A stretch of DNA of 64,000 nucleotides from an uncultured Marinoscillum sp. (GCA_964527965.1 CAZGPH010000005.1:16395-80394); one strand, 5' to 3'. Positions 10,554 through 64,000 are shown, numbered from the stretch's first letter. Program-made: numbers and translations. Notes: a model not told the origin generated them from the sequence alone.

Positions 10554-10590
10554 TATTTTAAATATAGTTATTTTTCAGATGAATCATCAT

Positions 10591-13857: not shown

Positions 13858-13892
13858 CTTTGGTGTGTTTAGGTTAATTAGTTTTTAAATTT

Positions 13893-32766: not shown

Positions 32767-32830
32767 GTATTGTAATTTGATATTTAACGCAAATTTAGTC
32801 AATATATTTTCCAAATCTTAATTCTAAAGT

Positions 32831-43076: not shown

Positions 43077-44024
43077 CTAAAAGTATCTAGGTGATTTGAT
43101 AATGTCTTTCTTCTTGAACATAAAATCATACCTTAGCATTATCTCGTGACTTCCTCCGTTGTACTTAAATGTAGTATTTCCTAGTGAGTAGTCGTAAGTA
43201 TAACCTATTGCTATATTATCATTTAAATTAATTCCTGCCATTAGTCCAAGTCCTCCACCAACTTTACTAGTTGGTATAATTCTTCCCATAGCTGTCCTAG
43301 CCATTCCACCTAGCCAGAAAAAGTCTTTGAATACTGCATAGGCACTAATATCCATAGTAATAGGAGCATTCTTAGTCATCTTAAAATATACACTTGGCCT
43401 TAATTTTATATCTCTACTAATCTCAAATAATGCACCTCCAATCGCAAACAAATGTCTCTGTGATTGGTCAAATTCTTTTTCTAATAAATTTGGCACTGAT
43501 AAGCCAGCGTACCACTTCGTAGTATTATAGTACACTCCAGCTCCAACATTTGGAAGAAATTTCTTTCTTACGTCTCTACTAAATGAAGGGTCTATCTGGT
43601 CAGGATCTCCCGCGTCTAAATCTAACATTGAGAAGTCAGAGCTGTACGCGTTACCTCCACCTTTTATTCCAAATGAGAGTTTATGTCCACTCTGGCTTAC
43701 CTTTAAGTGGTAAGCTAAATCTATGGCAAAGTATGTAGATTTTATAGGTCCTATCTTATCATTAAGTACAGATAAACCAAAACCAAGTTCGTCGTTAAAA
43801 AGAGGTGAGTTTAGTGAAAGAGTCTGTGTCCTAGGGGCCCCGTCAAAATTTATCCACTGAGATCTCAGCACAGAAAGTACACTTAATACCTCTCTAGAAC
43901 CGACATAACCTGGATTTATTGCCTGAGTGTTGAACATGTAATGACTAAACATAGCGTCCTGTTGTGCTCTAGCCGAGAAGCTAGCACTTATGACAACTAA
44001 AAACAATATTACTTTTCTCATCAT
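43077..44024 (-). CDS. PorP/SprF-family type IX secretion system outer-membrane protein (copy 1)
   Basis: Has a signal peptide MMRKVILFLVVISASFSARAQ followed by QDAMFSHYMFNTQAINPGYVGSRE, the classic PorP/SprF N-terminal motif. I prefer the start at 44024. The track start at 44066 would overlap the giant gene. It lies 13 nt downstream of the giant gene's stop and 2 nt upstream of the OmpA gene. Confidence 0.8.
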   Translation of the reverse strand: MMRKVILFLVVISASFSARAQQDAMFSHYMFNTQAINPGYVGSREVLSVLSVLRSQWINFDGAPRTQTLSLNSPLFNDELGFGLSVLNDKIGPIKSTYFAIDLAYHLKVSQSGHKLSFGIKGGGNAYSSDFSMLDLDAGDPDQIDPSFSRDVRKKFLPNVGAGVYYNTTKWYAGLSVPNLLEKEFDQSQRHLFAIGGALFEISRDIKLRPSVYFKMTKNAPITMDISAYAVFKDFFWLGGMARTAMGRIIPTSKVGGGLGLMAGINLNDNIAIGYTYDYSLGNTTFKYNGGSHEIMLRYDFMFKKKDIIKSPRYF

Positions 44025-44037
44025 TACTTTCACAAAT

Positions 44038-47000
44038 TTATTCATTTCCTCTTCTAATATAAACAATACCTTTTCTGTACCTATTATCTTCTTCTACTGC
44101 ATTTCCATCAATATCTGTGTCACCTAGGTCGATAACAAAGAAGTATACAGTCTCTGGCAATAATTTACCATTAGTATTACCAAAGTTAGCAATTCCTTCA
44201 AAATATTTCTGAGGGTCATCATTTTTATAACCTTCCATCTCAAATACCTTAAGTTCCCATCTATTATAAATCTGCACGACACTATTAGGATAGTAGTCTA
44301 TTCCCGTAATAACCCAGTTATCATTTGTACCGTCACTATTTGGAGAGAATCCTTCAGGTATATGGAGATCTCTAAACTTGACGTCAAGCACCATAGCTTC
44401 AGATAGTACGAAAGCACATCTGTATCCAGTAGCAGTAACTTTCACCCTGTAAAGCGTGTTGTCGAATTCATCAAATGTAACATCTGTTATAGTCATTGAG
44501 TCTGTGTCTATGCCGCTGAATTGTAGACCATTAGCAAGATCGGTCCATGTAGTGTCCTGCTCGTCATCAGAGACAACACCCATCTGCCACTGGTACTCAG
44601 CTGGCAAGTCACCATCAACCGTCACACCAACAGAGTAAGAAACATTATCTCCCTGGAATACTGTTCCAGCATCCTGAGGTTGAGAAGTGATATTTACTAC
44701 AAGTATCAATGCATCATAGCAATCTAACACACCGTTATTATCAGAATCCACAGGAAGTACATAACCTTCTTCTTCATCAGTTACCACAAGACCATTATCG
44801 TCAATCTCAGGAAGACCAACTCCCAATATACCGTCACCATCAAGGTCAGCAAACCCAGCTTCTACCACGTCATTACATCCGTCATCGTCACTGTCTAAGT
44901 CTAAATAGTTAGGTATTCCATCGTCTAAATCTTCAGTGACATCACTATTAGGTTGACCTGTACCCTCAGAGCCATCAGCCATACCGTCATTATCAGCATC
45001 TACATATCCTACGTCGTCAGAGTCTATCATTCCGTCGTCATTAGTATCTAAGTCAGTAAACTCATTTGTGCCGTCTTCGTCAAAGTCCGCATCAATTCCG
45101 TCTCCACCTTCTACAACATCAAATATTCCGTCGTTATCAGAGTCGAGGTCTTGGTAGTCATTAGCACCGTCACCGTCAGAGTCTATGACAGGAGTGTCCT
45201 CAGTCTGATCTGCCATACCATCGCCATCAGCATCAACAAACGTGAAGTTAACGTCATTATCTAAGGTGTCAATCATTCCGTCTCCGTTCGTATCAAATAC
45301 ACCGTCTCCACCCTCAATAACATCCTGGATACCGTCATTATCAGAGTCAATATCTACAAAGTCAGGATTTCCGTCATTGTCCGTATTTGTTACAGGAGTC
45401 GTCTCAGAGTCGTCATCCATCCCGTCATTATCTGAGTCAGAATATCCTGTATCAGAGTCATTGATTACACCATCATCATTAGTGTCAAGAGAGCTATCTC
45501 CACCTTCTTCCACGTCGTATATACCGTCGTTATCAGAGTCTATATCTAAGTGGTTAGGTAAGCTGTCTCCATCAGAATCCAATACGTCTGTAGGCTCAGA
45601 GTCGTCGTCCATACCGTCTCCGTCAGAGTCAGAGTAATCGCTATCATTTGAGTCAATAGCACCGTCTCCATTAGTGTCAAGGTTACCGTCTCCGGACTCA
45701 GTGACATCATGAATACCGTCATTATCTGAGTCAATATCTATGTAGTCAGGAACACCGTCAGAGTCGCTATCAGTCTCAGGAGTTAATTCCGCTGTGTCGT
45801 TCATTCCGTTACCGTCAAGATCAAAGTAACCGTTGTCTTGAGAACAGATACACCCAATCACACCGTCTCCGTCAACATCAAGGTCACTGTCTCCACCCTC
45901 TACAACATCAAATATACCGTCGTTGTCAGAGTCAATGTCTTGGAAGTCTGGCACAAGGTCATTATCACTATTTGTCACTGGTGTAGACTCTGCGTCATCG
46001 TCCATTCCGTCTCCGTCAGTATCTGTGAATCCAGTATCTCCAGAGTTTATTACACCGTCATCATTGGTGTCTAAGTCACCGTCTCCACCCTCTTCAACGT
46101 CAAATATACCGTCGTTATCAGAGTCAATATCTATATAGTCAGGGATACCATCTCCTAGCTGGTCTCCGTCTGTGTGTACTACTGGAGTTGATTCTGAGTC
46201 ATCGTCCATTCCGTCTCCGTCAGAGTCAACATAACCGTCATCATTAGGATCAATTGCACCGTCTCCATTAGTGTCAAGGTTACCGTCTCCACCCTCAATT
46301 ACGTCATGTATACCGTCGTCGTCAGAGTCGATGTCTAGGTAATTAGGAACTCCATCAGAGTCACTGTCAAGCTCAGAAGTTAACTCTGCTGTGTCGTCCA
46401 TTCCGTCAGCGTCTAGATCAGTATAACCCGTGTCATTTGAGTCAATAACTCCGTCGTTATTAGTATCTAAGTCTCCGTCTCCACCTTCTTCCACATCGAA
46501 TATACCGTCGTTGTCAGAGTCAATATCTTGGTAGTCAGGGATAAGGTCAAAGTCGCTGTTTGTAACTAGAGTAGTTTCTGCTGTGTCGTCCATTCCGTCG
46601 TCATCAGCATCTACAAAACCTGTGTCATTGGTGTCTATTACACCGTCATTGTTAGTGTCTAAGTCACCGTCTCCACCTTCAACTACATCAAATATACCGT
46701 CGTTATCAGAGTCGATATCTAAGTAGTCAGGGATTCCGTCTCCTAGCTGGTCTCCGTCAGTGTGTACTACTGGGGTAGACTCCGCGTCATCGTCCATTCC
46801 GTCTGCGTCGACATCTGAGTAACCTGTGTCATTGGTGTCTATAACTCCGTCGTTATTAGTGTCTAGACCTCCGTCTCCGCCCTCATCAACATCAAATATT
46901 CCGTCGTTATCAGAGTCGATATCAAGGTAATTAGGTTTTCCGTCACCGTCATTGTCAGGTACAGTGGTAGGTTCAGAACTGTCGTCCATTCCGTCACCGT

Positions 47001-50000
47001 CTAGGTCAGTATAACCCGTGTCATTGGTGTCTATAACTCCGTCGTTATTAGTATCTAAGTCTCCGTCTCCACCTTCTTCAACGTCGAATATACCGTCGTT
47101 ATCAGAGTCAATATCTAGGTAGTCAGGGTTTCCGTCACCATCACTATCAGGAGCTGGAATTAACTCACTGTCGTCATCCATTCCGTCACCGTCAACATCT
47201 GAGAACCCGTCGTCATTTGAATCTATAACACCGTCGTTATTAGTGTCTAGATCACCGCTTCCACCCTCTTCAACGTCGAATATACCATCGTTATCAGAAT
47301 CAATATCTAGGTAGTCAGGGTTTCCGTCTCCGTCATAATCAGGCTGAGGTGTGTCCTCACTGTCGTCAGCCATTCCGTCGTTATCTTCGTCAGAGAATCC
47401 GTCGTCATTATCATCAATCATACCGTCACCGTTAGTGTCAAGGTCACCGTCTCCTCCTTCAACAACATCAAATATGCCGTCGTTATCGGAGTCGATATCT
47501 AAGAAGTCTGGTGTGCCGTCTCCGTCAGTATCTGGCTCAGGCGTATCTTCTGAATCATCTGCCATACCGTCCTCGTCTTCATCTGCAAATCCATCATCAT
47601 TCTCGTCTATCATGCCATCACCGTTGGTGTCAAGGGCTCCGTCTCCACCCTCTATCACGTCTGGGATTCCGTCATTATCGGAGTCAAGATCTAAGTAATT
47701 TGGTATTCCGTCACCATCTAAGTCACCATATCCTTCGTCAACATTAGGAATTCCGTCATTGTCAAGGTCGATGTCAGTTATAACTGTTACTAAGGCTGAG
47801 TTAGAGGTTGATGGTATAGCACAAGCGCTAGTAGGTATGTCAACAATAACTCGGTAGTATGTAGAGTCAATGATAGTGTCAGCACCCGAAATAAATAATG
47901 TATCTGTAAAAGATCCTATGTACATAAGAGTATCAAAAATACCCTCACCCCTATCTAAATAGAATGTGGTGTCAGTAACATTAGACCAAGAAGAACCGTC
48001 ATCAGACTTCTGCCACTGGTATGATGCACTATCTTGTACATCTGCTTCTACGAATAGGTACCCTGTAGTCTTATCAGGAATCTGAATACTAATAGGCTGT
48101 GTTGTGATTGATATATCAAAGTTGTCAACTTCTTTAAAGTCTACCACTCCAGAACCGTCTGAGTCATTTGGTTCGGTGTACCCGTCTTCAGGTACGTCAC
48201 TACCAGGAACTGGCACACAAACATTTTCTAACCATACCACCTGGTTATTATATGCTGCACCTGTCGCGGCAGTGAAACCATAGTATACTTCAGCATCATC
48301 ACTAAATATATCTGCTACAATGTCTTTTGTTAGAGTAATAATTTCAGTTCCATCCCATGACACCGTCATAGTCTTTGTCTCTGCGGTCCAGTTAAATACA
48401 AAATCATGGTATAGACCGTCCTCTATGCCTGGACTAAATATGTGAAGGTTAGTATGTGTTCCGTATGGCACTCCATCAAATATTACTGCGGCATGATTAG
48501 ATGCTGTACCAGAGAAACTATTATTATACGTGTCAAACTCGACAGCTACTGATGGTGATATGCCAGCATATCCTAATCCTCCACCTTCACCTCCAAGGTC
48601 TGATGCTAGTGGCTGTATCACAAAAGCAATTCCGTCAGCTCCAGAAGGATTACTTCCTAGGTTTAATTTTCCTTCTACCTTAAAGTCTTCTGTTAGGTTA
48701 ATTTTTTCTTTAGACCATACAGAACCAGACTGAGTAGTTGTAGCTCTTGTAAGTCTATAGACTTCATTATCTCCGTCATCTGTCCACTTCTCAGCGTCTC
48801 CTACTAGGTTGTAGTCTTCGTCGTCAATACTGTTACATGCTAAGGACGCGCAGCCTATTACCTGACCAATATTATTAACAATTACAGGACTTGTACAAAG
48901 AATTCCGTCTCCGTCAGGGTCACTAAACCCAGCTTCAAGTACATCGAAACAACCGTCTCCGTCAGAGTCGAGGTCGTAGTGGTTAGGGATTCCGTCGTTA
49001 TCGTAGTCGTCGTCATTCTCAGAGTCGATAACCTCTAGAGTGTCCACAATACCGTCATTATCGTCGTCAATATCTATATCGTTTGGAATTCCGTCCTCAT
49101 CATAGTCATTAGTCACCCTTATTGGGATTACAGACGTAGTGTCGTTGTCACCACAAGCATAAGCAGGAGTAGAGACTATCATCTTGTACTGGTAGTTATT
49201 CATAGAAACTGGAGCTCCAAGAATAGTTAAGGTGTCTGTGTCAACTCCGCTATAAGGTGCAAATGGAGGTAATAATATCCATGAATTACCAGAGTCTATG
49301 CTCACATACCATTCGTATTCTGCAGAACCAGTTACATCTACAACAGTACCTATTACAATTGTGTCTCCTACTTCAACCTTATCAAGAACAGGCTCAGAGA
49401 TAATAAACGCAGCAGATCCCACCTCTCTGTAGTCTTCAACACCGTTAGCGTCTCCGTCTTTAGGCTTAAAGTAACCTTGAGAAGTCGTACCGTCCGCACT
49501 CTGGATTACTCTTCCAAGCTCATCTACTTTGACAGGGCTGTTACCAAGAATACCGTCAGGGAGTGTGTCATTATCATCAAATCCAGCTTCTATAACGTCA
49601 GCACATCCGTCTCCGTCAGAGTCGAGGTCGAAGTGGTTAGGGATTCCGTCACCGTCTAAGTCAGTAGTATCTTCCTTAGTGTCTAGAATTCCGTCGTTGT
49701 CGTCGTCCACATCGATATCATCTGGAATTCCGTCTGCGTCGTTATCTGGAAGAATTTCAAGGAGCGCAGGTGCTGAAAGTACACCAGGATCACAAGCAAA
49801 TGCAGGATTTCTAACTGTAGTCCTGTACATGTATCCGTTTATATCTTTAGGTGGTTTAGGGATATATAATGTATCATTTTTAATTCCTGAGTATGTAAGG
49901 CTATCAGCAGAGGTGATATCTTTCCAAGTCGTGGCAGAGTCACTACTTACCTGCCAGTCGAATACTACGTTTCCACTTTCATCACCTTCTAGTGTACCAG

Positions 50001-53000
50001 AGACACTTATATCTTTCACTGACTGGCTGTTCCAGTAATTTCCGGTAGAAGCTGTAAATCCAAAGTTTACCTGGCTCATTCCAAAAACTTCTGAGACAAT
50101 ATCTGAGGTTGCAGAGACAATTTCAATTCCTCCTATTGAGACAGCGAGCTTATTAGCATCTGCATCCCAAGAAACTGAGATGTTTTTGTATGTGTTATCT
50201 TCAAGCTCTGAAACATTTTTCGTGGATAATACTGTCCTAGCACCATTTTTAAGAGATACTATCGCGACAAAGTCTTCAGTCTGGCCGTGAGTATCAAACT
50301 CTACAGCAATTGCATTACTGATATTTCCACCTCTATATCCAAGGTTTGCGTAATTAGATCCATATGCTGAGGTACCATTTGGCTGGAGGACAAACGCCAC
50401 TCCCTCACCTCCGTTGCTACCATACGAACCGAAATTAATTTTTGATGAGACAACAAAGTCTCTGTCAATATGTATCTTCTTCTTGTTCCATAGCTGACCA
50501 TCTCTGTAACTGGTACTTGTCAAGTAGAAGTAAGATGTCTGCCAAGAAGCGTTATCTTGAGTGAACCAGTCATAGTAGTTGAAAGGATAATTACTCATTG
50601 CACCACCTACCGCAGTTCCTTTAGCTACGAAGTATACTGCTGTACCTTGGGTTCCAGATACAGTGTCAGGGCTTGAGACAAGAACTGCCACAGTTCCAAA
50701 CTCAAGGAAGTCAAAAGTACCCGAGTTATCGTTATCAGCTGGTAGTGTGTACCCGTCTGAACCAGAAGTTACAAGTCCTAGAGTGTCAACAGTAACAGGG
50801 GAGTTTCCTAATAAACCGTCGTCATCTCCGTCAGTGAAACCAGCCTCTACAGCATCAAGACATCCGTCTCCGTCTGAGTCAAGGTCAAAATGGTTAGGGA
50901 TTCCGTCACCGTCAGTGTCTTCGTCTGTCTCTAGAGAGTCTAAAATACCGTCATTGTCGTCGTCTAAGTCAATTTCGTCAATTATTCCGTCCTTGTCATT
51001 ATCAAGGAAAATAGCAACCCTGATACAGTCTCCTCCTGACTCTGGAGAACAAGCGTAAGCAGGATCAATAACAGCCCTTCTGATCCTCACACCGTCTAGT
51101 GTAGCGGTCGCGTTCTTAAGAGTAAGGTTATCAGAATCAACATCTTCGAATGTAGGTGCACCAGCAAAACCTCCCACTGGGAATGGGTTATCCATCTCAG
51201 TATTGAAGCTAGAACCTAGAGAACATCCCCTACACGTCTTCCAGTCATTCACGTTGAATGTAGAAGAGTAAATTCTTCCGTCTTTCCTGTATGCCCATCC
51301 TAGAGTATAATCCCAAAGCTCTCCCGAGCCGTCTTTACCTGGGGTGCCAAACACGTCCACAATGCTATCGTTTTTGTAAAGAACTATCGCGTCGTCACCG
51401 TCAAAGTTATTATACAGAGACTGCTGTGAAGGATTATCTCCGAACCATGACTTGTAGTAGAGGTCATTTGATGACACCGTGTAGAACTTACCAGAGTCTA
51501 GAGATACTGCGCTGAGAGAGTACTCTTCTCCGTCTGAGGCAGCACCGTCTCTCGCTATCTCTATACCGTAAATACTAAGGTCAGCAATGTCTTCGAGTGC
51601 ATAGAATTCGATAACAGAAGGCTCTATCCCTCCAATATCTCCCCTGAATATACCTGTCATCATAAGTCCCGGAGACTTCTCGATGATTGTACATTCTGAG
51701 CAGTCGTCGTTACACATCTGCCATACCACGTCACCAGTTCCATCGTAAGTTACTGATGTTGTGAATGTTGTGTCAGAACCCTCTTTTACAATGACTATGT
51801 CGTCGTCTTCGTAGCTGTCAGAGAATTCAGGGACATCTCCAGCCTGCTTGAAGTCGTACATTCCGTTGTCGTCAAGGTCGTTAGGTTCCTTGTATCCTTT
51901 ATATATAGACTCTCCAGAAGAGGCATCTATCTCGCAGATGCTCTTGATATACACTCTCTGCTCTTGAGCATAATTATAGTTATCTGAGGTGAATCCGAAG
52001 TACGCCAGATTAGATCCGCTGAGCACGTCTTTTACTATATCAACCTGGTATGTCATGAGAACTTTACCATCGAACTCGACAGTTACAGTCTTAGTAGATG
52101 CATTCCATGAGAACACAAACTCCCTCCACTGTCCGTCTTCAATATTTTCCAATGTCTCGGTGATGATTGGACGCTGTGAATGGTAATTATATCCATAACC
52201 ACTAGTTGTAGTTACTCCAAGAGTAGATGTTCCAGCAATATTATTACCATTTATATGTAAAGAGGAGTGGTCAGCTTCTGGGTCATAACTACCATCGTCT
52301 CTCGTATCAAACTCGACAGATAATGCGTTATTAAACTGCATTGCCATCTGTCCCCAATAATATAAAGAGTATTGGTTATTATTTTGTGTGATATTGAATG
52401 CTATACCTGAACCACCATTACCATCTTTATCTCCTAGGTAGAGGTCGGCCTTTATGACAAAGTCTCCTCTTAGGTCTACCCTGCCGTTATTTGGAGATCC
52501 CTGCCTGAACACAGAACCATAATTGTACGTACTGGCATTAGTTAGTCTGTAGTAACCTGGTGTTTTTTCAGAGTCAGCTACATATCCTGCGTTTTGTCCT
52601 GTTTTCCAAGACATGTTTGTGTAAGGGTCATCATCACAGCTTGAGTCGTCTAAACACACAACCTTACCTAAATCATCTACGACAACTGGGCTAGTACATA
52701 GTAACCCGTCTCCGTCTAGGTCTTCGAATCCAGCCTCTTCCACGTCGAGACACCCGTCATTGTCTGAGTCTAGATCAAACCAGTCTGGAATTCCGTCACC
52801 GTCTGTGTCTATACCTGTCTCTACAGAGTCTAATATCCCGTCATTATCGTCATCTAAATCGATTATATCTATTATTCCGTCTTGGTCGTTGTCTCCAGCT
52901 AATATAGCTGAAACAACCGCTGAAGGTGTGTCTGGACCACACTTGAATGAAGGAGTGCTCGCAACCAGCCTGTACTGATAATCACCCATTGCAAACGTCA

Positions 53001-56000
53001 CATTTGTTATGTTTAGAGTGGTGTCTGTCTTTCCTGAGAAGTAGGATGTGTCCTGACCAATTACAAGGGTATCTACCACGCTATTCCAGTTACTTCCGTC
53101 GGCACTGTACTCCCACTGGTAAGTAATTGCTCCATCAGCCGTGAAAGATGCTGTGAAAGACGCATTTTGACCTGCTATTATAGTATCGTTTACTGGAACT
53201 GTATTTGCGACTGCATCAGATCCAAACTCTAGAAGGTCTAAGACCCCGTTCTCATCAATATCATCTTCTGGAGGTTGGTATCCACCATGACCTATCACAG
53301 TACCCACAGAAGTTACTTCAAATGGAGATGTTCCAAGGAATCCGTCGTCGTCTCCATCTTCGTACCCTGCCTCTACAGCGTCGACGCATCCGTCTCCGTC
53401 TGAGTCGTTATCTTTTGAGTTAGGGATTCCGTCTCCGTCTGTGTCTACGTCCTCGCCCTCACTTATGTCTATGATACCGTCATTATCGTCATCAATATCA
53501 ATATTATCTGGTATACCGTCTTCATCCCAATCCTCTGAGTTTATAATCATCACCGGAACAGAATATACCGTGTCACCACAAGCAAACGCTGGAGTTGTGA
53601 GCATGACCCTGAATTTATTGGCAACGTAGTCAGTTATATTGTCAACATTGAGAGTATCAGTAGTCACAGTAGAGAAATCTTCCACATTCGATAGGTCTGT
53701 CCAAGATTCTCCTGTCGTATCCAAAAGAATCTGCCACTGATATCCAATAACTGCATCAGAAGAAGCCTCTACAAAGAACTTCACCTTCTCTTCATAGTAT
53801 ATCTGGTTATTAGGTTGTCTCACAATCTCTACCTGAGACCCAACCTCTTTGTAGTCCATGACTCCGTTTCCGTCTAGGTCTAGGGCAGATGGTGTAGAGT
53901 ACCCTCCCTGGTTAATAACTCTACCCTGGTTATCAACAGATACTGGAGAAGTTCCCAAGTATCCGTCATTATCAGGATCAGTAAATCCAGCTTCAACAGC
54001 ATCAAAACAGCCGTCTCCGTCAGAATCTAGGTCAATGTAATTAGGGAATCCGTCACCATCAATATCGGTAGTGTCCTCGTCAACGTCTAATATACCGTCA
54101 TTATCTGCGTCAAGGTCTAGCTTATCCACATAACCGTCATTATCGTAATCTGGAAGGAATACGTTTAGAGTAGAAATATCAGTCGAAACGATTGGAGCAC
54201 AAGAAAATCCTGAAGTTTGTAACTCTAAGTTAAAGAGGTAACCATTCATTGAGAAAGGAATATTTTCTATTCTTAAGGTGTCAGTGTTCACACCAGACAT
54301 TACAACAGAGGTTCCGAAAGATGCCACTGGGAATGAGTAGAATAAGGTGTCACCATTATCAAGTACCTTATAATCATCTGGGCCTGAGCCAGCAGATAAA
54401 TTAGTAAACTCATTATTTAGACATTCATCACAAGTTGTCCAGTCCTGAGCCCTGAAGTTATTAGATACTTGAGTTGTGTCTTTCTTATATCTCCATCCCT
54501 TATTATATCCATCAGTCTCACTTCCCTCAACCTTGTCTACCTCGACCCATTTTGAAGAAGCATAACCCTCAGGAGCATACTCTAAGGTCACATTATTTTT
54601 TCCAGTTAGTTGGGTATTAAGGTTATTTACCTGGTGGTATTTATAGTTATTTAAGTTAAAATTATTATTTGAACCAGATCCTGCTAAGAAACTAATCGCG
54701 TCACCAGACGTGTATACAATGTAGTAGAATTCTCCCTTGGTAAGAGTCACACATGATGATGTGGTGTTACCCAGTACATACTCTGCATTTCCAAACTTCA
54801 CCTTATAGTCTCTCAGACAGTCTACATCTCTCAGTGCCTTGAACTCAATAAGTTTAGGTCTCTGACTGCTTCTATTTGCCTCCATTACACCAGTGATGAT
54901 AAGAGAAGGAGTATTCTGAAGAGTTCTGAAAGTACTTCCTCCGTCATCACTCTGCTGCCATCTCTGAGTTATCACACTAGGTGAACTTCCAGATCCTACC
55001 ATTATCGTATCATCTAACAATAACACATTAACTGTAGCAGGATTTAAGGTTATATTAACCGTGTCACCTGCCTCAAGGTAATCATTTACCCCGTTATTAT
55101 CCAGGTCGCTAGGGTCTGAGTATCCATCAATTCCACTTGTGACAAGACCATTAACATCAACAAATACATCCTGAGGACCAAGGTAACCATCACCATTTTC
55201 GTCAGTAAATCCGGCCTCTAACACGTCATCACAACCGTCACCGTCTGAGTCTAAGTCTAGACAATTTGGAAGTCCGTCACCGTCTGTGTCTATGTCACAT
55301 CCCTCAAAAAGATCTGGTATACCATCATTATCTGAGTCTAAGTCAACGTAATCTGGGACACCGTCTCCGTCAGTGTCAGACATGGCATCAACCTTAAGGT
55401 TAGCACATACTGAGAACACTGTCGTATCACACTTGAATCCTGGAGTAGTGAGAACTACTCTAAAGTTCTTGTCATTGTAAGATAATGGAGTCCTCAAAAT
55501 CTGTAATGTATCATTTTTAACTCCTTTGAATTCTGAAGGACCAGAGAATCTAAATAGTGGGTAAGCGTCCTGTACTATGTCGTTACCGTTAGCACTGGTT
55601 CCTCCTATCAGACTAAATTCTTTCTTCTTGATATTCCAGTCGTCAGCATTATAAGTGAGAGATGCTCCCCTACCATTTTTTCTGTAAGCCCATCCTTCTT
55701 CTACATCCCATGCTGATCCATCTGCCGAGACTGAGTGGTCACCGTAAACATCAACTTTATCCCACTGGTTACTAGTGTTTTTCTCATATAGTGTGATATT
55801 AAACCTGTTATACCTCACCATATCATAAGTACCGTATACCGACTGAGATTTATAAGCTGTTGAGGCCTCATTGCTAAAGAAGTTAGTCCAACTACTATTA
55901 TAGTATAACATAAAGTACTGACCCTGCTTAAGGTCTGTATTTGATAAAGTATAACCTGGGCTACTACCTGAAGTTCCTGCGCTTGTGGTTATCCCGTAAT

Positions 56001-59000
56001 TACTTAGGTTGTCTATATCTCTAAGAGCGTAAAGCTCAACACCGTAATAAGCTCTATTTTTAGTCTCAAATAATCCTGTAATCATCAGAGCTGGCGACTC
56101 GTTGAGATCTGTCCACGTCTCACAGTCGTCACTTATCTGCCACTGGTAATTTATCATACCATCAGAAGAAGCCTCAACAGTAAGCTCCATATCGCTAAAT
56201 TCAGAGACGTTATTGTTATTATTTGGCTGGACATCGATAACAACCTGAGAACCTGACTCTAGGTAATCTTTTACACCGTTACCATCCAAGTCATCAGGGG
56301 TAGTATATCCAGTTCCAGAAGTGACTCTTCCCTTAGAATCCACAGTTGCTGCCTTATCTTTCTTACCGTCTCCATTAGTGTCTACTGAGTCTCCTAGGAT
56401 TCCGTCTCCGTCAGGATCTAAAAATCCAGCCTCTATAACGTCATCACATCCATCGTCGTCAGAGTCAAGGTCAAATGAGTTAGGGATTCCATCACCGTCT
56501 AAATCGTCAATAAACTCATCTACGTCAAGGATTCCGTCGTTGTCGTCGTCTTCATCGAAAAGGTCTTGGATTCCATCACCATCGTTGTCAGGTAGCGCTA
56601 TAAGTCTCGCGTTCAGCGTAGTATCATTTTCACCACATGAAAATCCTGGAGTGCTTAAGATAGCTCTGAACAGGTTGCTATTCATTGTAGTTGATATCGG
56701 ATCTATTGTAAGAATGGCATTATTAGAACCTGAGAAAGCACCTTCATCTTTTATATCTGCCCAGCTATCTCCGTTGTCTTCACTTACTTGCCACTGATAT
56801 GCTATAGGTGATATCGCAGTTCCCGAGGTAGTAAACGTCTCAGACTTACCATCTGAAGAGACCACATTGGATGGGTTTGTTATCGAAGTTAACGGTCCAC
56901 CAGCTTCCTGGAAGTCGTACACTCCGTTGTCATCACTATCATATCCGTCAGTCACACCATAAGGGTGGCCGTCCACCATACCAATTCCAGCAATAATTTC
57001 AGGGTCACCAGTTCCTGGCCTACCGTCTCCGTCAGGGTCATCGTACCCGGCCTCCACTACATCGTAACAACCGTCACCATCTGAGTCAAGGTCTAGGTAG
57101 TCAGGGGTTCCGTCTCCGTCTGTGTCAAGGTTATCTGGAGCTTTCTCCTCCGTGTTAAGGATACCGTCGTTATCTGAGTCAAGATCAAATGCATTGTCTA
57201 TCCCATCACCATCAGAGTCGTCTTTTGCAGTAAGTTTTCCAGCGTTAGAGTACACAGGGTCTGCACATACTAGTGCAGGAGTCACTACCTTTATCCTGTA
57301 GTAGTACCCGTCAATATCCTCTGTAACAGCGGTTAAACTCAGTGTGTTAGTATTTACTCCAGAGTAATACGTTCCGTCCTCAAGATCTGTCCACGTGAGA
57401 GTGTCGTCATCACTAAATTGCCACTGGTATGTGATAGAGGCGTCTCCAGTGACAGTAACACTAAACTGTCCGTCGTCACCACCTTGTCTCACAATATCAA
57501 TAGGATGAGATGTTATCTCAGCCTGAGAACTCACCTGTAAGAAGTCTTTGGTGCCGTCTGAATCCGTGTCTAGCGGTGTGTCGTACTCGTGTCCTTCAAC
57601 TTTTCCTGACGCGTCAACACTTGGTGTTCCAGATCCTATTACACCGTCTTGGTCTCCGTCCTCAAAACCTGCTTCAAGTACGTCAAGACACCCGTCTCCG
57701 TCGGAATCGTCATCGATTCTGTTAGGGACTCCGTCTCCGTCAGTGTCGAGATCCTCACCCCCCTCGTCCACGTCAAGGATACCGTCGTTATCATCGTCAG
57801 CATCTTCTCTGTCCGGGACACCGTCCTCGTCAGTATCATAAGGAATTATAGATATTGTTGCAACGCAAGACGTATCACCCTCACCACAAGAGAATGCTGG
57901 AGTAGATACCTTAACCCTCACCTGTGCACCGTGGTACTCGTCGTAAGATAAATTCTTTAGTGTAAGAGAAGCCGTTGTTGAACCATTCTCAGACTGCGTT
58001 GTGCTGTACGCGTTAAGAGCATACGGTGTGGAAGAAGCTGAGTTTGTGCTAGCTGTACCGAAACAGTCATTACAAGCAGTCCAGTCACCAATTTTAAATG
58101 ATTTGGAAGATAACTTATTATTTTTTCTCTTTAGCCAGCCCCTGCTATACTCCCAGTCTTTTCCTGTCCCGTCTTCACCCCTAACACCAACAACATCGAC
58201 TACGTCAGTGTTTCCATTCCATCCAGTGTTTCCGTCGGCATCTCTGTGAACTATCTCGAACACGTCATTTCCACCCTGCATATTTTGACTTAACGTATTA
58301 CCTACATCAAAAACTTTGGCGTATCCTGAGGCTGTGGTAGGGTACGTGTTATCAAAGAAGTAGTAGAATTGCCAGTAGTCGTAGTATAACAATATCTTCT
58401 GTCCCTTTTTGACAGAACCTGATAATGAGTTGTAGTTATAACCTGATGATGTATTTCCGTTTTGGTAGCCATAAATCCTATATCTCGACAAATCTTCTAT
58501 ATCCGTAGTAGCCACTAACTCAATAAACTTAGGTGTTCCTGTGTAACTACTTGATCTGTAAGAATAGCCTAAGCCTACAAACATTAGTCCTGACTCAGAG
58601 ATGTCTTTCCATGTCTTACCAGTATCTTTTGTTATCTCCCACTGGTAGTCAACATTTCCAGCCTCGACTGTTGCAAGCGCATTAAATACACCATTTCCAC
58701 CTTCGGCAACAGTAACTGCGTCTGGACACTCTAGAGCAGTAATTGGCGCTCCCTCTTCTAAGAAGTCATAAATTCCGTTATTATCAAGGTCATTTGGCAC
58801 TCCGTACCCACCGAAGCTGTTAACTCTACCATTGGCTGAAATTGACAACACACCAAGAGAGTTCAGAGAGTCTATAAACATTGTCACAACCGAATCCGGG
58901 CCTAACAGTCCGTCAGCATTTGCGTCCAAGTACCCTGCCTCTTCGACGTCTAGACATCCGTCACCGTCAGAATCAGGGTCAAATCTATTTGGTATACCGT

Positions 59001-62000
59001 CCTGGTCATTGTCCTGGTCACCTGTTCCCTCGTACGTATCTAAGATACCGTCATTGTCGTCGTCTTGGTCATCGGAATCTCTCACTCCGTCCTTGTCATT
59101 ATCAGGGTAAACTGTAAGAGTAGCCTCTAAATTAAGAGGCGCGACACCACACTTGTAAGATGCAATAGTCAGTACTACCCTGTACCTGTAACCAGAAAGT
59201 TCAGCACTTGGCTGAGTAAGTATTAACTCGTTTGTGTTTGTGCCAGAGTACGGGGCCTGTTCTGGAACATTAAACCATGATGCTCCATCGTCCCTACTCT
59301 CTTGCCACTGGTAGGATATTTGATCCCCAGAAGGTACGGAAGCAGTAATCTTGAAATTACCAGTTCCAGACGAAAGCATCGTAAGATTTGACTGGTTTAG
59401 TATTGCGTTGAGAACATTCTGTCCAAATTGCAGGAAGTCTTTTGATCCGTTACCGTCTTGGTCAACAGGCGTAGTGTAACCATCTCCAGCCTGACCTGAT
59501 GTGATCCTACCAAGAGAATCAACAGTGTAAGGGAGGTCATCACCTAAGATACCGTCGTCGTTAGTGTCTATAATTTTATCAGTAAACCCAGCCTCTGTGA
59601 CGTCTAAACATCCGTCTCCATCCGAATCCAGATCAAATCTGTTCCTTATACCGTCTCCGTCAAGGTCTCCCTCACCCTCGTCAGTGTCAAGGATACCGTC
59701 GTTATCGTCGTCAAGGTCTACATTATTTAAAATTCCGTCATTATCATTGTCTACATCGACATCCAACCTTGCAGGAGGAGTATATGTCGTGTCATGACAT
59801 GCGTACCCAGGAGTAGTTATCCTTAGCCTGTACCTCCACTCGTCCATTCCCTGAGTGACATCGTAAATATTCAGAGTACTTTCATATACACCACCATAGG
59901 AAGCAGATCCTGTGTTAACACAAATTCCTTCAAAATTTATACCTATTCCTCTGCTGTCTGGGTCTAGTATTCCAGACACGTCTGAGTACTTAATAGTAAC
60001 TGTCGAGACGCCGTCAGGGAAGGTTAGCCTTGCTGTTCCCTTATTATCGGCAGCAGACTCGCTATTATCTTTAGCAGTAAGTGTGTTTCCACTTATTGAG
60101 AATGTAGGGTTAGCATTTAGTGAGTCGGCAGTAGGATTACCCACATCAGAGGTAACTACTATCTTATCCTTCCACCCTGCTGTCTTAGAGTCAATATCTG
60201 TAAGTAGAATTCTAAGACCACTCACTGGGTTTGTAAATGTTATAGTCGTTGTAACCTCAGAATTACCAGATCCAGACTTAGGGTCTAGGCTTAGTCCTAA
60301 TGTCTGGACACCACCAAAAGCAGAATTCTCAATTTTTGGGTATCCAGTATCCCACACCACATCAGTGTTTTCAGTAATTTTTATAGTAGCATCGGTACTA
60401 GTACCTTGCATAATGTCTTTGAATGTACCTTCTAAGTTACCACCAGTCCATGTCCACGGTCCATTACCCCAGTCCGATGTGGTACACACGTCAGTGGCAC
60501 CTGTAGAACCTGTTCCGTTATCCCCAGCATCAATATCTGTCCAGGTATTTGCATTATCTTTTGACACCTGCCAGTGAAGTTTAGTAGCTCCAGAAGCATT
60601 ATAGTTGACATTAAAAGTGGCCGTGTCACTACCTTCAGAAAGGAAGTAATTACTATAATTTACTATAGTTACTGTACTACCTACTTCTAAGTAGTCAGCA
60701 GTTCCGTTACCGTCCTCGTCCAGAGGGGTATCGAAATTGTGGTCTTTAACTCCACCATCAGATTCTACTTCTGGGGTTCCTGTTCCCAAAATCCCATCTC
60801 CGTCAGGATCAGTGAAACCTGCCTCGACAACGTCAAGACACCCGTCACCGTCAGAATCTAAGTCAAACTTGTCTACAATTCCGTCACCGTCAGTATCCGT
60901 GTCTTCACCCTCGACTGAGTCTAAGATTCCGTCGTTATCATCGTCAATATCTGTGTCATCAGGTATTCCGTCTCTGTCATTATCTCCAACCACTGTTATT
61001 GTAACTGCACAGGTAGTGTCATTATCTCCACAAACGTAACTTGGAGTACTTCCTATTGCCCTGAACTGGTATCCGTTAGCAGAAGCTGGTACATTAGTTA
61101 CCACTAAGGAGTCTCCCTTTGAGAAATCGTAATCAATTACAGAAGTAGTAAATGTCTTGACCGGGAATGGTGTCGTGGCTCCTGCGTTAGTAGAAGACTC
61201 AAGGCAGTCCTTACACTGCGTCCAGTCGCTGTCGCTATAGTTAGGTGTTGGCTTAGAACCTTGCTTCCTATATAACCACCCGTCATCATAATTTAATACT
61301 GTCGAAGCTGTTCCATTTCCTACCCTGTCAACGTAAGTCCAAGTGTTATTTATATTCTTCTCTAGGGCGTAGGAATCATTACCATCCCTCATAGTAGTAT
61401 AAAAATAGTCTTCGTATACGGTGTGGTCATATAAGTTATCAATATCAGAACCGAAGAATGTATTTGCGGTAGACTTATCAGATGGGTAGTAGATGAGTAG
61501 GTACTCGCCCTTCTTCATCTGGATATTTTGTTGGTACATAACCCAAGAGTAATTATATGTGTTACCGTTTGTAATATTATCCCTCATCCTGTAATTTCTA
61601 AGGTCTGCATCTTTTAAGGCATATATCTCAATGAACTTAGGGTACCCGTCATTACTAGTTGAAGTCTTTCCATATCCTATCCCTGATATAATAATCTCTG
61701 ATGATGATTCGTCATTGACGTCTGACCAGGTCTTACCGGTATCAGCACTTACCTGCCACTCGTAGTTTACAGAGGTCTCTCCCTGCCCACTCGCGATAGT
61801 TATAATTTCTACGTTAGAACCCTCTGTCGCTGTGATGTCGTCAGGACAGCTCATGCTCGTGATAGCAGCTCCAGCCTCCTGGAAGTCTTTTACTCCGTTG
61901 CCGTCCTGGTCAAGTCCGGTGGTTCCAGAAGCTCCAGAGACACTTCCGTTAGAGTTTATGGTAGGGTTTGCGTCTCCATACACTCCGTCATTATTAGGGT

Positions 62001-64000
62001 CTCTGTCAGTGGAAGTACCATATGCCTCGTCTACATCGTAGCAGCCATCATTATCTGAATCTAAATCTTTTGAGTCAGGGTTACCATCTCCGTCAGTGTC
62101 GGTGACACCATTTCCTTCCTGGGTATCAAGGATACCGTCATTGTCATCGTCCACATCGATCTCATCCCTTATGCCGTCTAAGTCGAAGTCATCTCTCACG
62201 AGTAGAGTTGTTACTGCTGAAGTGTCAGCAACAGCACAAGCAAAGCCTGGATTTGTGACAATCACCCTGTACTGGTAGCCATTTAAATCATCAAATACTG
62301 GGTTTATGGTAAGAGAATTTGTTCCGTATCCTGTGTAGGCAGTAGTAGTAGTAGTAGATGAAACCGCTTCCTTTATACTTATACCATCAATAGAGAGATA
62401 TGCTCCAGTTGAACCAGAAGATGTAGGTGTAGTTTGTACAACAAATCCAATACTATAATTCCCTGTTGTCGGAGCAGTATAATTTAAGCTCGCGTTATTC
62501 CATCCAGTTCCATGTACCATCTCGCCTCCGTCTCCAATAAGAGTTGTTGGTGCATTCGTACCAGCGTCAATAAAAACTCTTATTTTTCCACTATTATTAA
62601 GTTTAAAACTATTACAATCAGAACTATTACAAGCACCAAAATTAGCTTGCTCATAGCTTATAGTGTAGGTTTCACCTGCTTCTAGGGAAACATTTTGATA
62701 TATTCCTTCCTCATAACTCATATCAGTTCTATCGTGGAATCCAACCCAAGTACCTCCATCATTAGAGTTTGAAACATTAACACCATCAGGAATATAGTAA
62801 GTACCACCCACAGCCTCATTTTCAAGATTATTGATATCAGATGTTATGTCTGAAGCAAGCCTAGTCCAACCAGTCGGTGCAACACAACATTTTACAGTAC
62901 CATCTAAGGAACCATTTGTAAATAAATTTACTCCAGATCCAGATCCCGAAGTAAAGGTAACGGTATCATTTTCAGCGTTTATCGTGGTCCAGTTCGTCGA
63001 GTCGCTACTCACCTGCCACGTGTAACCCACAGTAGATGGGTAATCAACAACAGTCCACCCTCCCACAGGTTCTGAGTAATCTGGGCTGCTGGTGTCTTGG
63101 TAGTGACCAATCCAAATATTTCTACTAGTTCCTTTTTTGGCTCTCACAGCCTCATGTATTAGCTGATTCTCTGCTGCGTCTCCAATGACCGTGAGATAAC
63201 CTCCAATTCCTTCTGCAGTTGTCTTAGCCGTGGTCCAGTAGCGCTGATAATTATCACTCACATAGTATGAGTGACCATTATAATCGTCCATAAGCTTTGT
63301 GAATCCAGAGATAGCATCATTTCTTGTCTTATTAAACTCAACCACGATCCAGTTATAGGAGTTACTTACATCATCCCACCTACCATTACTTATATACATA
63401 TGCATATAATTTCCTGAGTTATTAGGCTCACCACCATTCCAGTTAAAATAAGACGAGGAATTTGGAATTCCATCAATTGTGGTACTTACGACTAGAGAAG
63501 TAGAAGAATTATTAGCCCCAATAGAGGTTGTAGGTAGATCAGAAGATATCGTAGGAGAAAATCCTTTCTCTAAATAATCTGATACCCCAGAATTATCTCC
63601 ATCTGCGGGAGTTCCGTAACCGTGTCCAGTAACCTTACCGTCTGTACCAGCACAGTTAGCATTTGCACATAATCTTCCTTCTGAGTCATAACCACTAAAT
63701 CCTGCCTCCTGCGCGTCTAAACATCCGTCATCGTCTGAGTCGAGGTCTAGTCTGTTAGGTATCCCGTCACCGTCTGTGTCAAGGTCTTTTCCTCCCTCTT
63801 CTGTATCTAGGATTCCGTCGTTGTCGTCGTCAAGGTCGACACTATTTTTTATTCCGTCATTGTCTGGATCAGATGACACTGTAAGCTGAGCAGGGAGTGA
63901 GTAGGCAGGTCCTGCAGAGCAGGCGTATACTGTAGGAGTTGCCTTCATTCTGTACAAGTTCTTATCAAAGTTTGCCGGTGCAGACTTCACTCTAAGCGTG
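44038..64000 (-). CDS. giant secreted modular adhesin-like protein (at least 6,650 aa visible, N-terminus outside window) with T9SS type B C-terminal domain
   Basis: A single uninterrupted minus-strand frame runs from the window edge to TAA at 44038-44040. The frame is still open upstream of the track's GTG at 63990, and no signal peptide is present there. The visible part has 16 TSP3-like acidic modules and 16 Ig-like domains. It also has 5 LTD-like inserts, 2 jelly-roll-like inserts, 3 L-type-lectin-like domains, 1 permuted CTLD-like domain and a 14-unit acidic array. The C-terminus is [21 protein letters not shown]....[11 protein letters not shown]...[10 protein letters not shown]. Confidence 0.9.
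44041..44375 (-). other. T9SS type B C-terminal sorting domain of the giant protein
   Basis: The last ~110 aa read [53 protein letters not shown]...[14 protein letters not shown]...[10 protein letters not shown]. Confidence 0.75.
44930..47775 (-). repeat. in-frame tandem array of 14 poly-acidic units, 64-75 aa (about 192-225 bp) each
   Basis: The unit consensus is (Y/F)[63 protein letters not shown]. I counted 14 occurrences of D[IL]DSD[ND]DGI. The boundaries were mapped by reverse-translating nt 47761-47775 (DIDLD) and nt 44881-44940 ([20 protein letters not shown]). Confidence 0.85.
48215..48825 (-). other. L-type (legume-like) lectin domain, copy 3 of the giant protein
   Basis: Reads [34 protein letters not shown]...[26 protein letters not shown]...[22 protein letters not shown]...NHAAVIFDG...[18 protein letters not shown]. 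It closely parallels the domain at 37160-37762. Confidence 0.6.
49990..50590 (-). other. L-type-lectin-like domain, copy 2 of the giant protein (more divergent)
   Basis: Reads ...[53 protein letters not shown]...[28 protein letters not shown]...[18 protein letters not shown]. Confidence 0.5.
51212..51675 (-). other. lamin-tail-domain (LTD)-like insert 5
   Basis: Reads [54 protein letters not shown]...[44 protein letters not shown]...NDWKTCRGC. Confidence 0.5.
51925..52630 (-). other. L-type-lectin-like domain, copy 1 of the giant protein (divergent)
   Basis: Reads ...[19 protein letters not shown]...[31 protein letters not shown]...[27 protein letters not shown]...[18 protein letters not shown]. 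Confidence 0.45.
54405..54910 (-). other. LTD-like insert 4
   Basis: Reads [44 protein letters not shown]...GKNNVTLEY...[24 protein letters not shown]...QDWTTCDEC. Confidence 0.45.
55610..56098 (-). other. LTD-like insert 3
   Basis: Reads [41 protein letters not shown]...[46 protein letters not shown]...DDWN. Confidence 0.45.
58055..58595 (-). other. LTD-like insert 2
   Basis: Reads [45 protein letters not shown]...[12 protein letters not shown]...[28 protein letters not shown]...GDWTACNDC. Confidence 0.45.
61195..61700 (-). other. LTD-like insert 1
   Basis: Reads [44 protein letters not shown]...[28 protein letters not shown]...[11 protein letters not shown]...SDWTQCKDC. Confidence 0.45.
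63037..63459 (-). other. C-type-lectin-like domain with the same permuted order as in the 2,617-aa protein
   Basis: In residues ~178-318 of the visible protein, [41 protein letters not shown] comes first. [44 protein letters not shown]...NIWIGHYQD...[10 protein letters not shown] follows. Reverse translation of nt 63421-63460 reads [13 protein letters not shown]. Confidence 0.5.

Follow-up and report, generated by a model that had tools for sequence, protein, structure and literature searches.

Introduction

Type IX secretion system (T9SS) proteins that carry a type-B C-terminal sorting domain (CTD) bind their PorP-like protein, and PorE bridges PorP to the peptidoglycan (PMC9143113). It was postulated in the same work that mobile type-B adhesins such as SprB are without PorE partners and that non-mobile ones have them (PMC9143113). 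In Flavobacterium johnsoniae, Fjoh_3952-3951-3950 encode a type-B substrate, an SprF-like protein and a PorE-like protein, respectively, and gave static foci only, while the mobile substrates of this species have no linked porE-like gene (PMC12618676, 2025). Here we describe a locus with the same gene order in a stretch of 64,000 nucleotides from an uncultured Marinoscillum sp. (GCA_964527965.1 CAZGPH010000005.1:16395-80394), hereafter called the window. The locus encodes a giant repetitive protein, of which the C-terminal 6,653 codons lie in the window, and which is probably a multivalent lectin fibre, static and ordered by calcium.

Marine Bacteroidota play a major part in breaking down algal and particulate organic matter, and little is understood of the means by which planktonic cells fasten onto their substrates. 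Giant adhesins of the RTX, Bap and SiiE types, e.g., the ice-binding adhesin of Marinomonas primoryensis, occur in marine and aquatic bacteria and combine calcium-rigidified Ig-like extenders with binding modules. Domains nested in Ig-like scaffolds are known from Gram-positive pilus adhesins, and in thrombospondin the calcium-binding wire is packed onto an L-type-lectin-like domain. Repeat adhesins that bind calcium, thrombospondin type-3 repeats among them, had been reported from the genomes of marine flavobacteria by 2009 (PMC2668756).

Open reading frame and its orthologs

The frame lies on the minus strand and is open from 44041 to 63999 (6,653 codons), with the stop codon at 44038-44040, and runs past the end of the window. 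A first-pass annotation of this DNA had described a frame of at least 6,650 amino acids (aa) filling the last 20 kb and continuing beyond, and this description holds. The longest other open stretch in the window comprises 2,622 codons. The gene is recorded as follows.

44038-63999, minus strand: giant adhesin gene, C-terminal 6,653 codons and stop (open frame; orthologs open over the available flank; dN/dS 0.09)

A gene that is highly repetitive, incomplete in the window, and called as four fragments in one long-read ortholog could be an artefact of assembly, by collapse or expansion of repeats, or a decaying pseudogene. We regard this as very improbable for three reasons. Firstly, the internal repeat copies are mostly 60-80% identical at the DNA level, and long near-identical stretches, by which an assembler could be misled, are absent. 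Secondly, independent metagenome-assembled genomes (MAGs), single amplified genomes (SAGs) and metagenomes give colinear open frames. The downstream PorP/SprF-like protein, used as query, retrieved 19 related loci from genome collections; in each of the 18 loci that were examined an upstream frame ended at the PorP gene, and for the majority of close relatives this frame reached the edge of the available DNA. It was open across the entire available flank in loci L002, L006 and L007, and in L004 it was open for 2,341 aa and then broke. The closest ortholog, L002, from the MAG "Flammeovirgaceae bacterium NAT912", showed 95.8% identity and was colinear with aa 3315-6653 over 3,342 residues, with a difference in length of only 3 aa over these 3,342 aa. 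Other Marinoscillum-like MAGs and SAGs were 62-88% identical to the giant frame. Thirdly, the ratio of non-synonymous to synonymous substitution rates (dN/dS, Nei-Gojobori) against L002 was 0.09 over 3,306 codons; by region it was 0.13 in the cassettes, 0.05 in the array of 64-aa repeats, and 0.05 in the last cassette together with the CTD. Judged on these comparisons the giant gene is real and under selection, and the artefact and pseudogene readings are excluded as far as sequence can exclude them. Both an assembly artefact and an interrupted frame had been raised by the first-pass annotation against its own reading, and neither was borne out by the diverged repeats, the open colinear orthologs and the low dN/dS.

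The same annotation had proposed looking for orthologs and variation in copy number. Besides the orthologs described above, variation was found in the number of 64-aa units, which ranged from 12 to 14 in the orthologs whose DNA covers the array. The neighbourhood of cassettes 14-15 also differs between orthologs, which points to occasional turnover of modules. The PorP-like protein was 98% identical to that of the "Flammeovirgaceae" MAG and 74-93% identical to those of uncultured Marinoscillum MAGs and SAGs and of a "Marinoscillaceae" long-read MAG; these identities place the window with marine planktonic Cytophagales, Marinoscillum-like, and not with the Flavobacteriaceae. The G+C content of the giant gene (window 44001-64000) was 0.40-0.46, compared with 0.28-0.38 in the rest of the window. 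We attribute the raised values to Asp/Gly-rich coding rather than to horizontal transfer, and the neighbouring paralog described below follows the same trend.

The likely start of the protein was seen in two orthologs, P0001 and L001, which both begin with a signal-peptide-like sequence. In P0001 it is followed by a cupredoxin-like domain, and residue 1080 is the equivalent of aa 1 in the window. In L001 this N-terminal domain was found immediately upstream of the first piece and in frame with it, some 1,710 codons ahead of the equivalent of aa 1. The full protein is thus probably about 7,700-8,400 aa long (roughly 8,000), and the window would hold its C-terminal part, about 80%. An exact 60-mer taken from the window end had no occurrence in the genome and metagenome contig collections, and two metagenome contigs that carry the downstream PorP-like gene end before the 5' part of the giant gene is reached. 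The cupredoxin-like domain behind the signal peptide of the orthologs carries a C-x2-H-x2-M motif, within YYYICVNHPDMQG and WYICTLHSQMKG, respectively (P0001 aa 1-150; L001 nt ~5212-5600), which suggests a possible copper site at the distal tip.

Architecture of the protein

The part of the protein in the window is made up of repeated cassettes, an array of shorter acidic repeats and a CTD. The Ig-like domains were delimited by a hidden Markov model (HMM) built from eight uninterrupted Ig-like copies of the protein itself. The features are listed in the N- to C-terminal direction, that is, from the window end; inserts referred to as LTD-like resemble the lamin-tail domain (LTD).

63913-63999, minus strand: partial 17th Ig-like domain, C-terminal strands, cut by the window end (Ig HMM, aa 1-29)
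62206-63870, minus strand: cassette 1; Ig1 with two inserts (permuted C-type lectin and 200-aa insert)
60994-62190, minus strand: cassette 2; Ig2 split by an LTD-like insert, aa 766-955, 61135-61704 (Ig HMM, insert alignment)
59779-60987, minus strand: cassette 3; Ig3 split by a 200-aa insert, aa 1166-1365, 59905-60504 (Ig HMM)
59113-59757, minus strand: cassette 4, plain, aa 1415-1629 (module and Ig HMM)
57853-59103, minus strand: cassette 5; Ig5 split by an LTD-like insert, aa 1810-2004, 57988-58572 (Ig HMM, insert alignment)
56614-57837, minus strand: cassettes 6 and 7, plain, aa 2055-2462 (cassette 6 is the one modelled by AlphaFold2)
55408-56595, minus strand: cassette 8; Ig8 split by an LTD-like insert, aa 2636-2821, 55537-56094 (Ig HMM, insert alignment)
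54181-55380, minus strand: cassette 9; Ig9 split by an LTD-like insert, aa 3031-3233, 54301-54909 (Ig HMM, insert alignment)
52900-54156, minus strand: cassettes 10 and 11, plain, aa 3282-3700 (module and Ig HMM)
51037-52899, minus strand: cassette 12; acidic module, linker occupied by an L-type lectin, aa 3817-4022, 51934-52551, and Ig12 interrupted by an LTD-like insert, aa 4102-4282, 51154-51696 (Pfam, Ig HMM)
49774-51009, minus strand: cassette 13; Ig13 split by a nested L-type lectin, aa 4490-4661, 50017-50532 (Ig HMM pieces 4422-4486 and 4659-4742)
49111-49752, minus strand: cassette 14, plain, aa 4750-4963 (module and Ig HMM)
47770-49107, minus strand: cassette 15; acidic module, L-type lectin in the linker, aa 5051-5265, 48205-48849, EF-type loop, Ig15 (Pfam Lectin_L-type_dom)
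44902-47769, minus strand: array of 14 tandem 64-aa acidic repeats, aa 5411-6366 (TRF period 192 nt and protein alignment)
44374-44901, minus strand: cassette 16; last acidic unit (DGC), EF-type loop, Ig16, aa 6367-6542 (module and Ig HMM)
44041-44364, minus strand: type-B T9SS C-terminal sorting domain, aa 6546-6653 (CHU_C, TIGR04131)

The array of 64-aa repeats was missing from the first-pass description. It extends over 956 aa, has four DxDxDG loops per unit and 31% Asp, and contains no Ig domains. Inserts split eight of the 16 complete Ig domains (Ig1, 2, 3, 5, 8, 9, 12 and 13), one more than the seven counted earlier, and Ig1 carries two of them. Seven inserts share one loop, at HMM positions 66-68 directly after the SxDxGxxW strand, and the two others lie earlier, between model positions ~27 and 60. 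Lectin domains had been said to replace the linker in three places; this is so for two of them (aa 3817-4022 and 5051-5265), and the third (aa 4490-4661) is nested in Ig13.

The repeated cassette

The composition of the cassette given in the first-pass annotation, i.e., 16 copies of an acidic module, a linker ending in an EF-hand/dockerin-like loop and an Ig-like domain, was reproduced. Each of the 16 acidic modules contains five consecutive DxDxDG-type loops and the marker DxDSDxDGC, which has 16 occurrences. The 16 EF-type loops follow the pattern DxDx(N/D/S)GxxD(Y/F)x(E/Q/D). Compared with the 12-residue consensus (D1, D/N3, D/N/S5, G6, D9, E12), all 16 fit at positions 1, 3, 5, 6 and 9, and position 12 is E in 12 loops, Q in three and D in one. 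The Ig HMM recognized 16 domains in full and, at aa 1-29, the end of a 17th (model positions 76-104). DxDxDG-type loops occur 130 times in the protein; 500 shuffled versions of it had 1.7 on average and never more than 6.

An AlphaFold2 model of cassette 6 (aa 2046-2256, 211 residues), for which an alignment of 30 cassettes served as input, reached a mean predicted local distance difference test score (pLDDT) of 94.8 and a predicted template modelling score (pTM) of 0.81. Structure prediction per module, which had been proposed earlier, thus gave the cassette as one unit. The first 110 residues are almost without helix or strand according to DSSP, at pLDDT above 90, and are followed by a beta-sandwich. 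In view of the high pTM, the acidic part seems to be held in a defined arrangement relative to the Ig domain. A Foldseek search matched the Ig part to I-set Ig domains (E ~2e-5, probability 1.0, root mean square deviation 2-3 A over ~100 residues), among them those of MuSK, titin, Robo, Dscam and contactins, and to the capsid-associated Ig-like domains of phages N4 and Moo19. The top Foldseek matches span ~100-130 columns, roughly the length of the Ig domain, and none of them appears to reach the acidic part. Pfam Ig_3 scored the Ig domain at 22.9 bits, below its cut-off of 30. The model does not give the EF-type loops the helix-loop-helix context of an EF-hand: an entering helix is absent, and the sole helical turn comprises three residues (107-109) and overlaps with the loop end. 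Calcium binding by the loops, and stiffening of the chain with it, is predicted from the loop motifs together with the confident AlphaFold model.

The acidic module had been called thrombospondin type-3-like. The resemblance of the motif stands, and the name is fair for how the module may work, but membership in the TSP_3 family was rejected: whole-protein and per-module scans gave no match of Pfam TSP_3 (PF02412) to the acidic modules at E<=1, although the bias filter of HMMER may hide weak matches in Asp-rich sequence, and thrombospondin and COMP were not retrieved at E<=1 when the PDB was searched with a profile of the 30 cassettes. The best PDB matches of this profile were EF-hand proteins including lanmodulin (E 0.02-0.03), and an OmpA protein with TSP3-like repeats (5wtl) came out at E 0.56.

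Two cysteines are invariant in the 30 cassettes, one in DGC and one behind the last strand motif of the Ig domain, and both are present in every Ig-bearing cassette of the giant protein. All 14 array units, which are devoid of an Ig domain, show DGI where the cassettes have DGC, and DGC returns in the final unit, ahead of Ig16. The same bias was seen in 120 relatives: in a rough count by regular expression, Cys occupied the DGC position in 64 of the 77 modules with an Ig motif behind them, compared with 85 of the 642 others. Since both cysteines accompany the Ig domain in this way, they probably pair as a disulfide within each cassette, linking the acidic stretch to the Ig domain.

Inserted domains

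Scans of the whole protein against Pfam and NCBIfam gave nothing in the first 3,400 aa, and per-module scans were needed to find the inserted domains. The many binding heads proposed earlier were supported at the level of domain families, with L-type lectins in three places, a single C-type lectin and five inserts that are LTD-like. The three L-type lectin domains are secure by their profile scores, with 311.5 bits for PF18483 over 3 stretches (E 4.6e-93) and 81.7 bits for a single domain against a cut-off of 78.3.

In Ig1, the first insert (aa 176-315; 63055-63474, minus strand) matched Lectin_C (PF00059) with 23.8 bits against a cut-off of 22.6 (E 7.7e-5), with half of the model covered. Within it, aa 180-222 (EPN, NGRWDDV...VVEF) match the C-terminal half of mannose-binding protein C (MBP-C), which holds the Ca/sugar site (E 5.7e-6), and aa 240-298 match the N-terminal half of the DC-SIGN carbohydrate recognition domain (E 3e-5). 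This reversed order of the halves was found also in the ortholog fragments P0004 and P0003, and indicates that the C-type lectin domain of Ig1 is circularly permuted. Among animal C-type lectins, those with the EPN motif have specificities of the mannose, GlcNAc or fucose type. The second insert of Ig1 (aa 345-548; 62356-62967, minus strand) gave only weak matches to the choice-of-anchor C model TIGR04362 (E 1.3e-3) and to PPC, PF04151 (E 5e-3), none of them convincing, and the insert of Ig3 (aa 1166-1365) had no match to a family or structure in Pfam, NCBIfam or the PDB.

The five inserts of Ig2, 5, 8, 9 and 12, each of ~180 aa, are mutually homologous, with 26-35% identity, and share the pattern FIE(L/I)YA...VD..G...GW.YRK...DW..C..C. 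An exhaustive profile search found 1,639 cluster representatives of this family at E<=1e-3 (50% clustering). Rarity of the family, as a word-indexed search with 16 proteins would have it, was rejected; the low count came from the word index. In many of the best matches the domain is near the N-terminus of the protein, and several small members have T9SS or PEP-CTERM sorting tails. The likeness to the LTD comes from such small members, which align with positions 9-175 of the ExeM nuclease model (E 2.5e-13 to 9e-5), and from 4 of 24 members of the family that match the Pfam LTD, the best at 2.5e-7. In ExeM of Shewanella the LTD lies at aa 28-128 of the protein, and its role is not established even there (PMC6085458). 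The copies in the window differ from the LTD in being longer, ~180 aa, and in the conserved GW.YRK...DW..C..C tail. The five inserts may thus belong to a divergent, Pfam-unannotated branch of the LTD superfamily, a link which is indirect and inconclusive.

Predicted secretion and anchoring, and neighbouring genes

The last 108 residues of the giant protein match CHU_C (E 1.2e-19, 70.6 bits against a cut-off of 27), and the C-terminus scores 39.1 bits against a cut-off of 35 for TIGR04131, the type-B sorting domain. Both models are above their cut-offs, which supports the type-B CTD of the earlier description, and the PorP/SprF-like and PorE-like genes downstream are the partners to be expected for anchoring. 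The two partner genes are as follows.

43077-44045, minus strand: PorP/SprF-like outer-membrane shuttle or anchor protein, 322 aa (Pfam PorP_SprF, PF11751, E 2e-76)
40750-43074, minus strand: PorE-like protein, 774 aa (signal peptide, PD40 beta-propeller repeat 3e-10, Big_9/cadherin-like 1e-12, C-terminal peptidoglycan-binding OmpA 2.7e-12)

The ATG of the PorP-like gene overlaps the stop codon of the giant gene by 8 nt (ATGAATAA), which suggests co-transcription, and possibly coupled translation, of the two genes. The exact PorP-like protein was found in the same gene order in two marine metagenomes of the Joint Genome Institute (JGI), and the adjacency of cargo and PorP was kept in both of these contigs as well as in the related loci with an examined upstream frame. 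The 774-aa protein resembles PorE in its PD40 and OmpA domains, with no TPR domain detected by Pfam.

The giant protein would then be a fixed (static) adhesin, as the gene order equals that of the static class in F. johnsoniae. A first alternative is a mobile gliding adhesin: like SprB, the protein would sit on its SprF-like partner and be propelled along the helical gliding track, moving the cell across surfaces, and some type-B CTDs do send any cargo to the gliding machinery (PMC12618676). We find this unlikely. A PorE-like OmpA gene follows directly after the PorP-like gene, and in F. johnsoniae the mobile substrates are without such a linked gene, while the tested PorE-linked substrate was static. 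In addition, no SprB repeats were detected by Pfam scans of the giant protein, no gliding genes were found within the window, and the relatives come from planktonic MAGs and SAGs.

A second alternative concerns retention at the surface. The protein could be a polyanionic calcium-binding polymer that is released or shed and is mainly non-adhesive, i.e., a matrix or capsule-like coat, a calcium buffer or a mineral nucleator. The composition fits such a role, with Asp making up 16% of the whole and 31% of the 956-aa array and with at least 130 putative Ca2+ loops, and some T9SS cargo is indeed released into the medium (PMC12618676). Still, there are eleven inserted lectin or binding-type domains and an Ig scaffold typical of adhesins; the binding domains are conserved to the same degree as the acidic parts (omega 0.13 versus 0.05); and type-B CTDs with a cognate pair of PorP-like and PorE-like proteins are associated with surface retention. 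We therefore hold a shed polymer to be improbable, and prefer the static fibre.

Further genes of the same kinds were observed in the window. About 3 kb downstream, at 32831-40684 on the minus strand, lies a paralogous adhesin of 2,617 aa with its own signal peptide and type-B CTD. It has four of the same acidic/Ig cassettes (~40% identity) and matches to L-type lectin, IgGFc-binding-like, LamG_3 and C-type lectin domains, and there is no PorP-like gene directly after it. At 29039-32814, minus strand, a third type-B CTD protein of 939 aa with seven bacterial cadherin-like/Big_9 repeats was found, followed by a second, more divergent PorP/SprF-like gene (E 4e-11). Three type-B cargo genes are thus clustered at 29-64 kb with two shuttle genes and a single PorE-like gene, adjoining parE and parC. 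Two large proteins with Sortilin/VPS10-BNR repeats are encoded at 3565-6531 and 10591-13857, minus strand, and a similar gene flanks the giant locus in L001 (L001 1-1349), which may reflect conserved synteny or a functional link.

Discussion

We propose the following mechanism for the giant protein. It would be exported by Sec, given that the orthologs carry an N-terminal signal peptide, and would cross the outer membrane through the T9SS via its type-B CTD. The PorP/SprF-like barrel encoded by the overlapping next gene would collect it, and a complex of the PorP-like protein and the PorE-like OmpA protein would hold it at a fixed position, tied to the peptidoglycan, instead of letting it travel in the manner of SprB. 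The extracellular part is pictured as a long stalk of at least 17 cassettes, each forming one unit in which five DxDxDG loops are joined with an EF-type loop and an I-set Ig, to which the cell-proximal array of 14 x 64 aa would add ~56 loops. In seawater (~10 mM Ca2+) the 130 or more loops should be calcium-loaded, which would give the chain order and stiffness. Binding heads would be displayed sideways from insertion sites in two loops of the Ig domain; the heads predicted in the window are three L-type lectins, one circularly permuted EPN C-type lectin, five LTD-like domains and two other 200-aa inserts. Judged from these domain families, the resulting fibre would be multivalent, would mostly target glycans, and would attach the cell to particles, to the surfaces of algae or to other cells.

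Several points weigh against this reading. The N-terminus of the protein lies beyond the window end. The L001 ortholog, on a 236-kb "pilon" contig from long reads, was called as four consecutive pieces of 1488, 663, 622 and 4554 aa, with breaks near nt 10,000, 11,990 and 13,900 (region 10001-13972), and the locus ends inside the last piece; sequencing frameshifts are the preferred explanation, and real interruptions in that strain could also explain the breaks. The rule by which a linked porE-like gene means a static protein comes from one tested F. johnsoniae operon and a postulate. The acidic modules match neither TSP_3 nor a solved structure, so that the proposed calcium geometry comes from motif and model. 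As to the LTD-like heads, the five inserts in the window had no match to Pfam LTD (PF00932) or in NCBIfam, and an alignment of the insert family with lamin A alone by hhalign was not significant. The AlphaFold2 model of Ig2 with its insert was of moderate quality (pLDDT 74.5), and its Foldseek match of highest probability, the lamin Ig-like domain 1ufg, had a probability of 0.82 but a weak E of 0.048. Finally, the proposals on calcium binding, stiffness, disulfides, exposure at the surface and ligands are predictions throughout.

The complete cassette, scored as one unit, was found in 52 of the 120 best database relatives, in 96 copies. It occurs in cultured Flavobacteriia (Aureibaculum, Spongiimicrobium, Maribacter), in proteins annotated as hypothetical, "glycine-rich" or "beta strand repeat-containing", and the uncultured relatives have names such as "gliding motility-associated C-terminal domain-containing". 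Literature searches found no characterised member of this cassette family. Tentatively, the cassette might be regarded as a previously undescribed unit, in which a five-loop calcium stretch is disulfide-stapled to an I-set Ig, capped by an EF-loop, and two Ig loops act as sockets for whole binding domains (L-type lectin, permuted C-type lectin, lamin-tail branch). About 17 or more of these units, with a 14-unit calcium spring by the anchor, could then form a static fibre, with heads along its length, by which abundant planktonic Cytophagales capture glycans, particles or algal cells in a calcium-dependent manner. We put this idea forward as possible rather than probable.

The gene takes ~24 kb in genomes which may be small, judging by single-cell genomes of other uncultured marine Bacteroidota, and it is so strongly conserved (dN/dS 0.09) that its importance to the cell is clear. 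For type-B T9SS adhesins of the static kind, it provides a specific candidate from beyond the model organisms. The predicted calcium dependence and disulfide staple of the cassette are accessible with small recombinant fragments, and the nested set of domains includes an LTD-like family with ~1,600 cluster representatives and a permuted C-type lectin.

Comparison with known systems

The closest systems are Fjoh_3952-3951-3950 of F. johnsoniae and PG1035-PorP-PorE of Porphyromonas gingivalis, which share with the locus described here the type-B CTD and the order of cargo, PorP/SprF-like protein and PorE-like OmpA protein. The giant cargo is far larger (~8,000 aa) and has another set of modules, and the PorE-like protein differs by its Big_9/cadherin-like and PD40 domains and by the lack of a detected TPR domain.

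SprB of F. johnsoniae (6,497 aa) is of the same size class, is likewise highly repetitive, and has a type-B CTD and a cognate SprF/PorP-like gene next to it (PMC9143113). Unlike SprB, the giant protein is built from a cassette of calcium loops, EF-type loop and Ig with nested lectins, and its gene has a linked porE-like gene, which sprB has not. Neither the SprB repeat (PF13573) nor the RTX repeat (PF00353) matched the giant protein in whole-protein and per-module Pfam scans. The domain vocabulary is thus different from those of SprB and RTX adhesins, as the first-pass annotation had judged, but it is not unique to the giant protein, given the presence of the cassette in its relatives.

With the wire of thrombospondin and COMP, and with the OmpA protein with TSP3-like repeats (5wtl), the acidic modules share contiguous DxDxDG loops and little secondary structure, and relatives of the giant protein carry precomputed PF02412 matches. 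In contrast to thrombospondin and COMP, there is one Cys per five loops and not a cysteine-rich pattern, and the partner domain is an I-set Ig. The functional logic is shared with the RTX, Bap and SiiE adhesins, in which a long Ca2+-dependent Ig-like extender presents sugar- or protein-binding modules. These differ from the giant protein in that they use the type I secretion system and not T9SS with PorP and PorE, and in that their heads are clustered at the tip and not nested along the stalk. The giant protein is therefore of a known kind, a giant, repetitive, probably calcium-dependent T9SS adhesin, and reveals no new kind of system. Its particular features are the set of modules, the way in which Ig loops regularly serve as insertion sites, its size and the predicted context of a static anchor.

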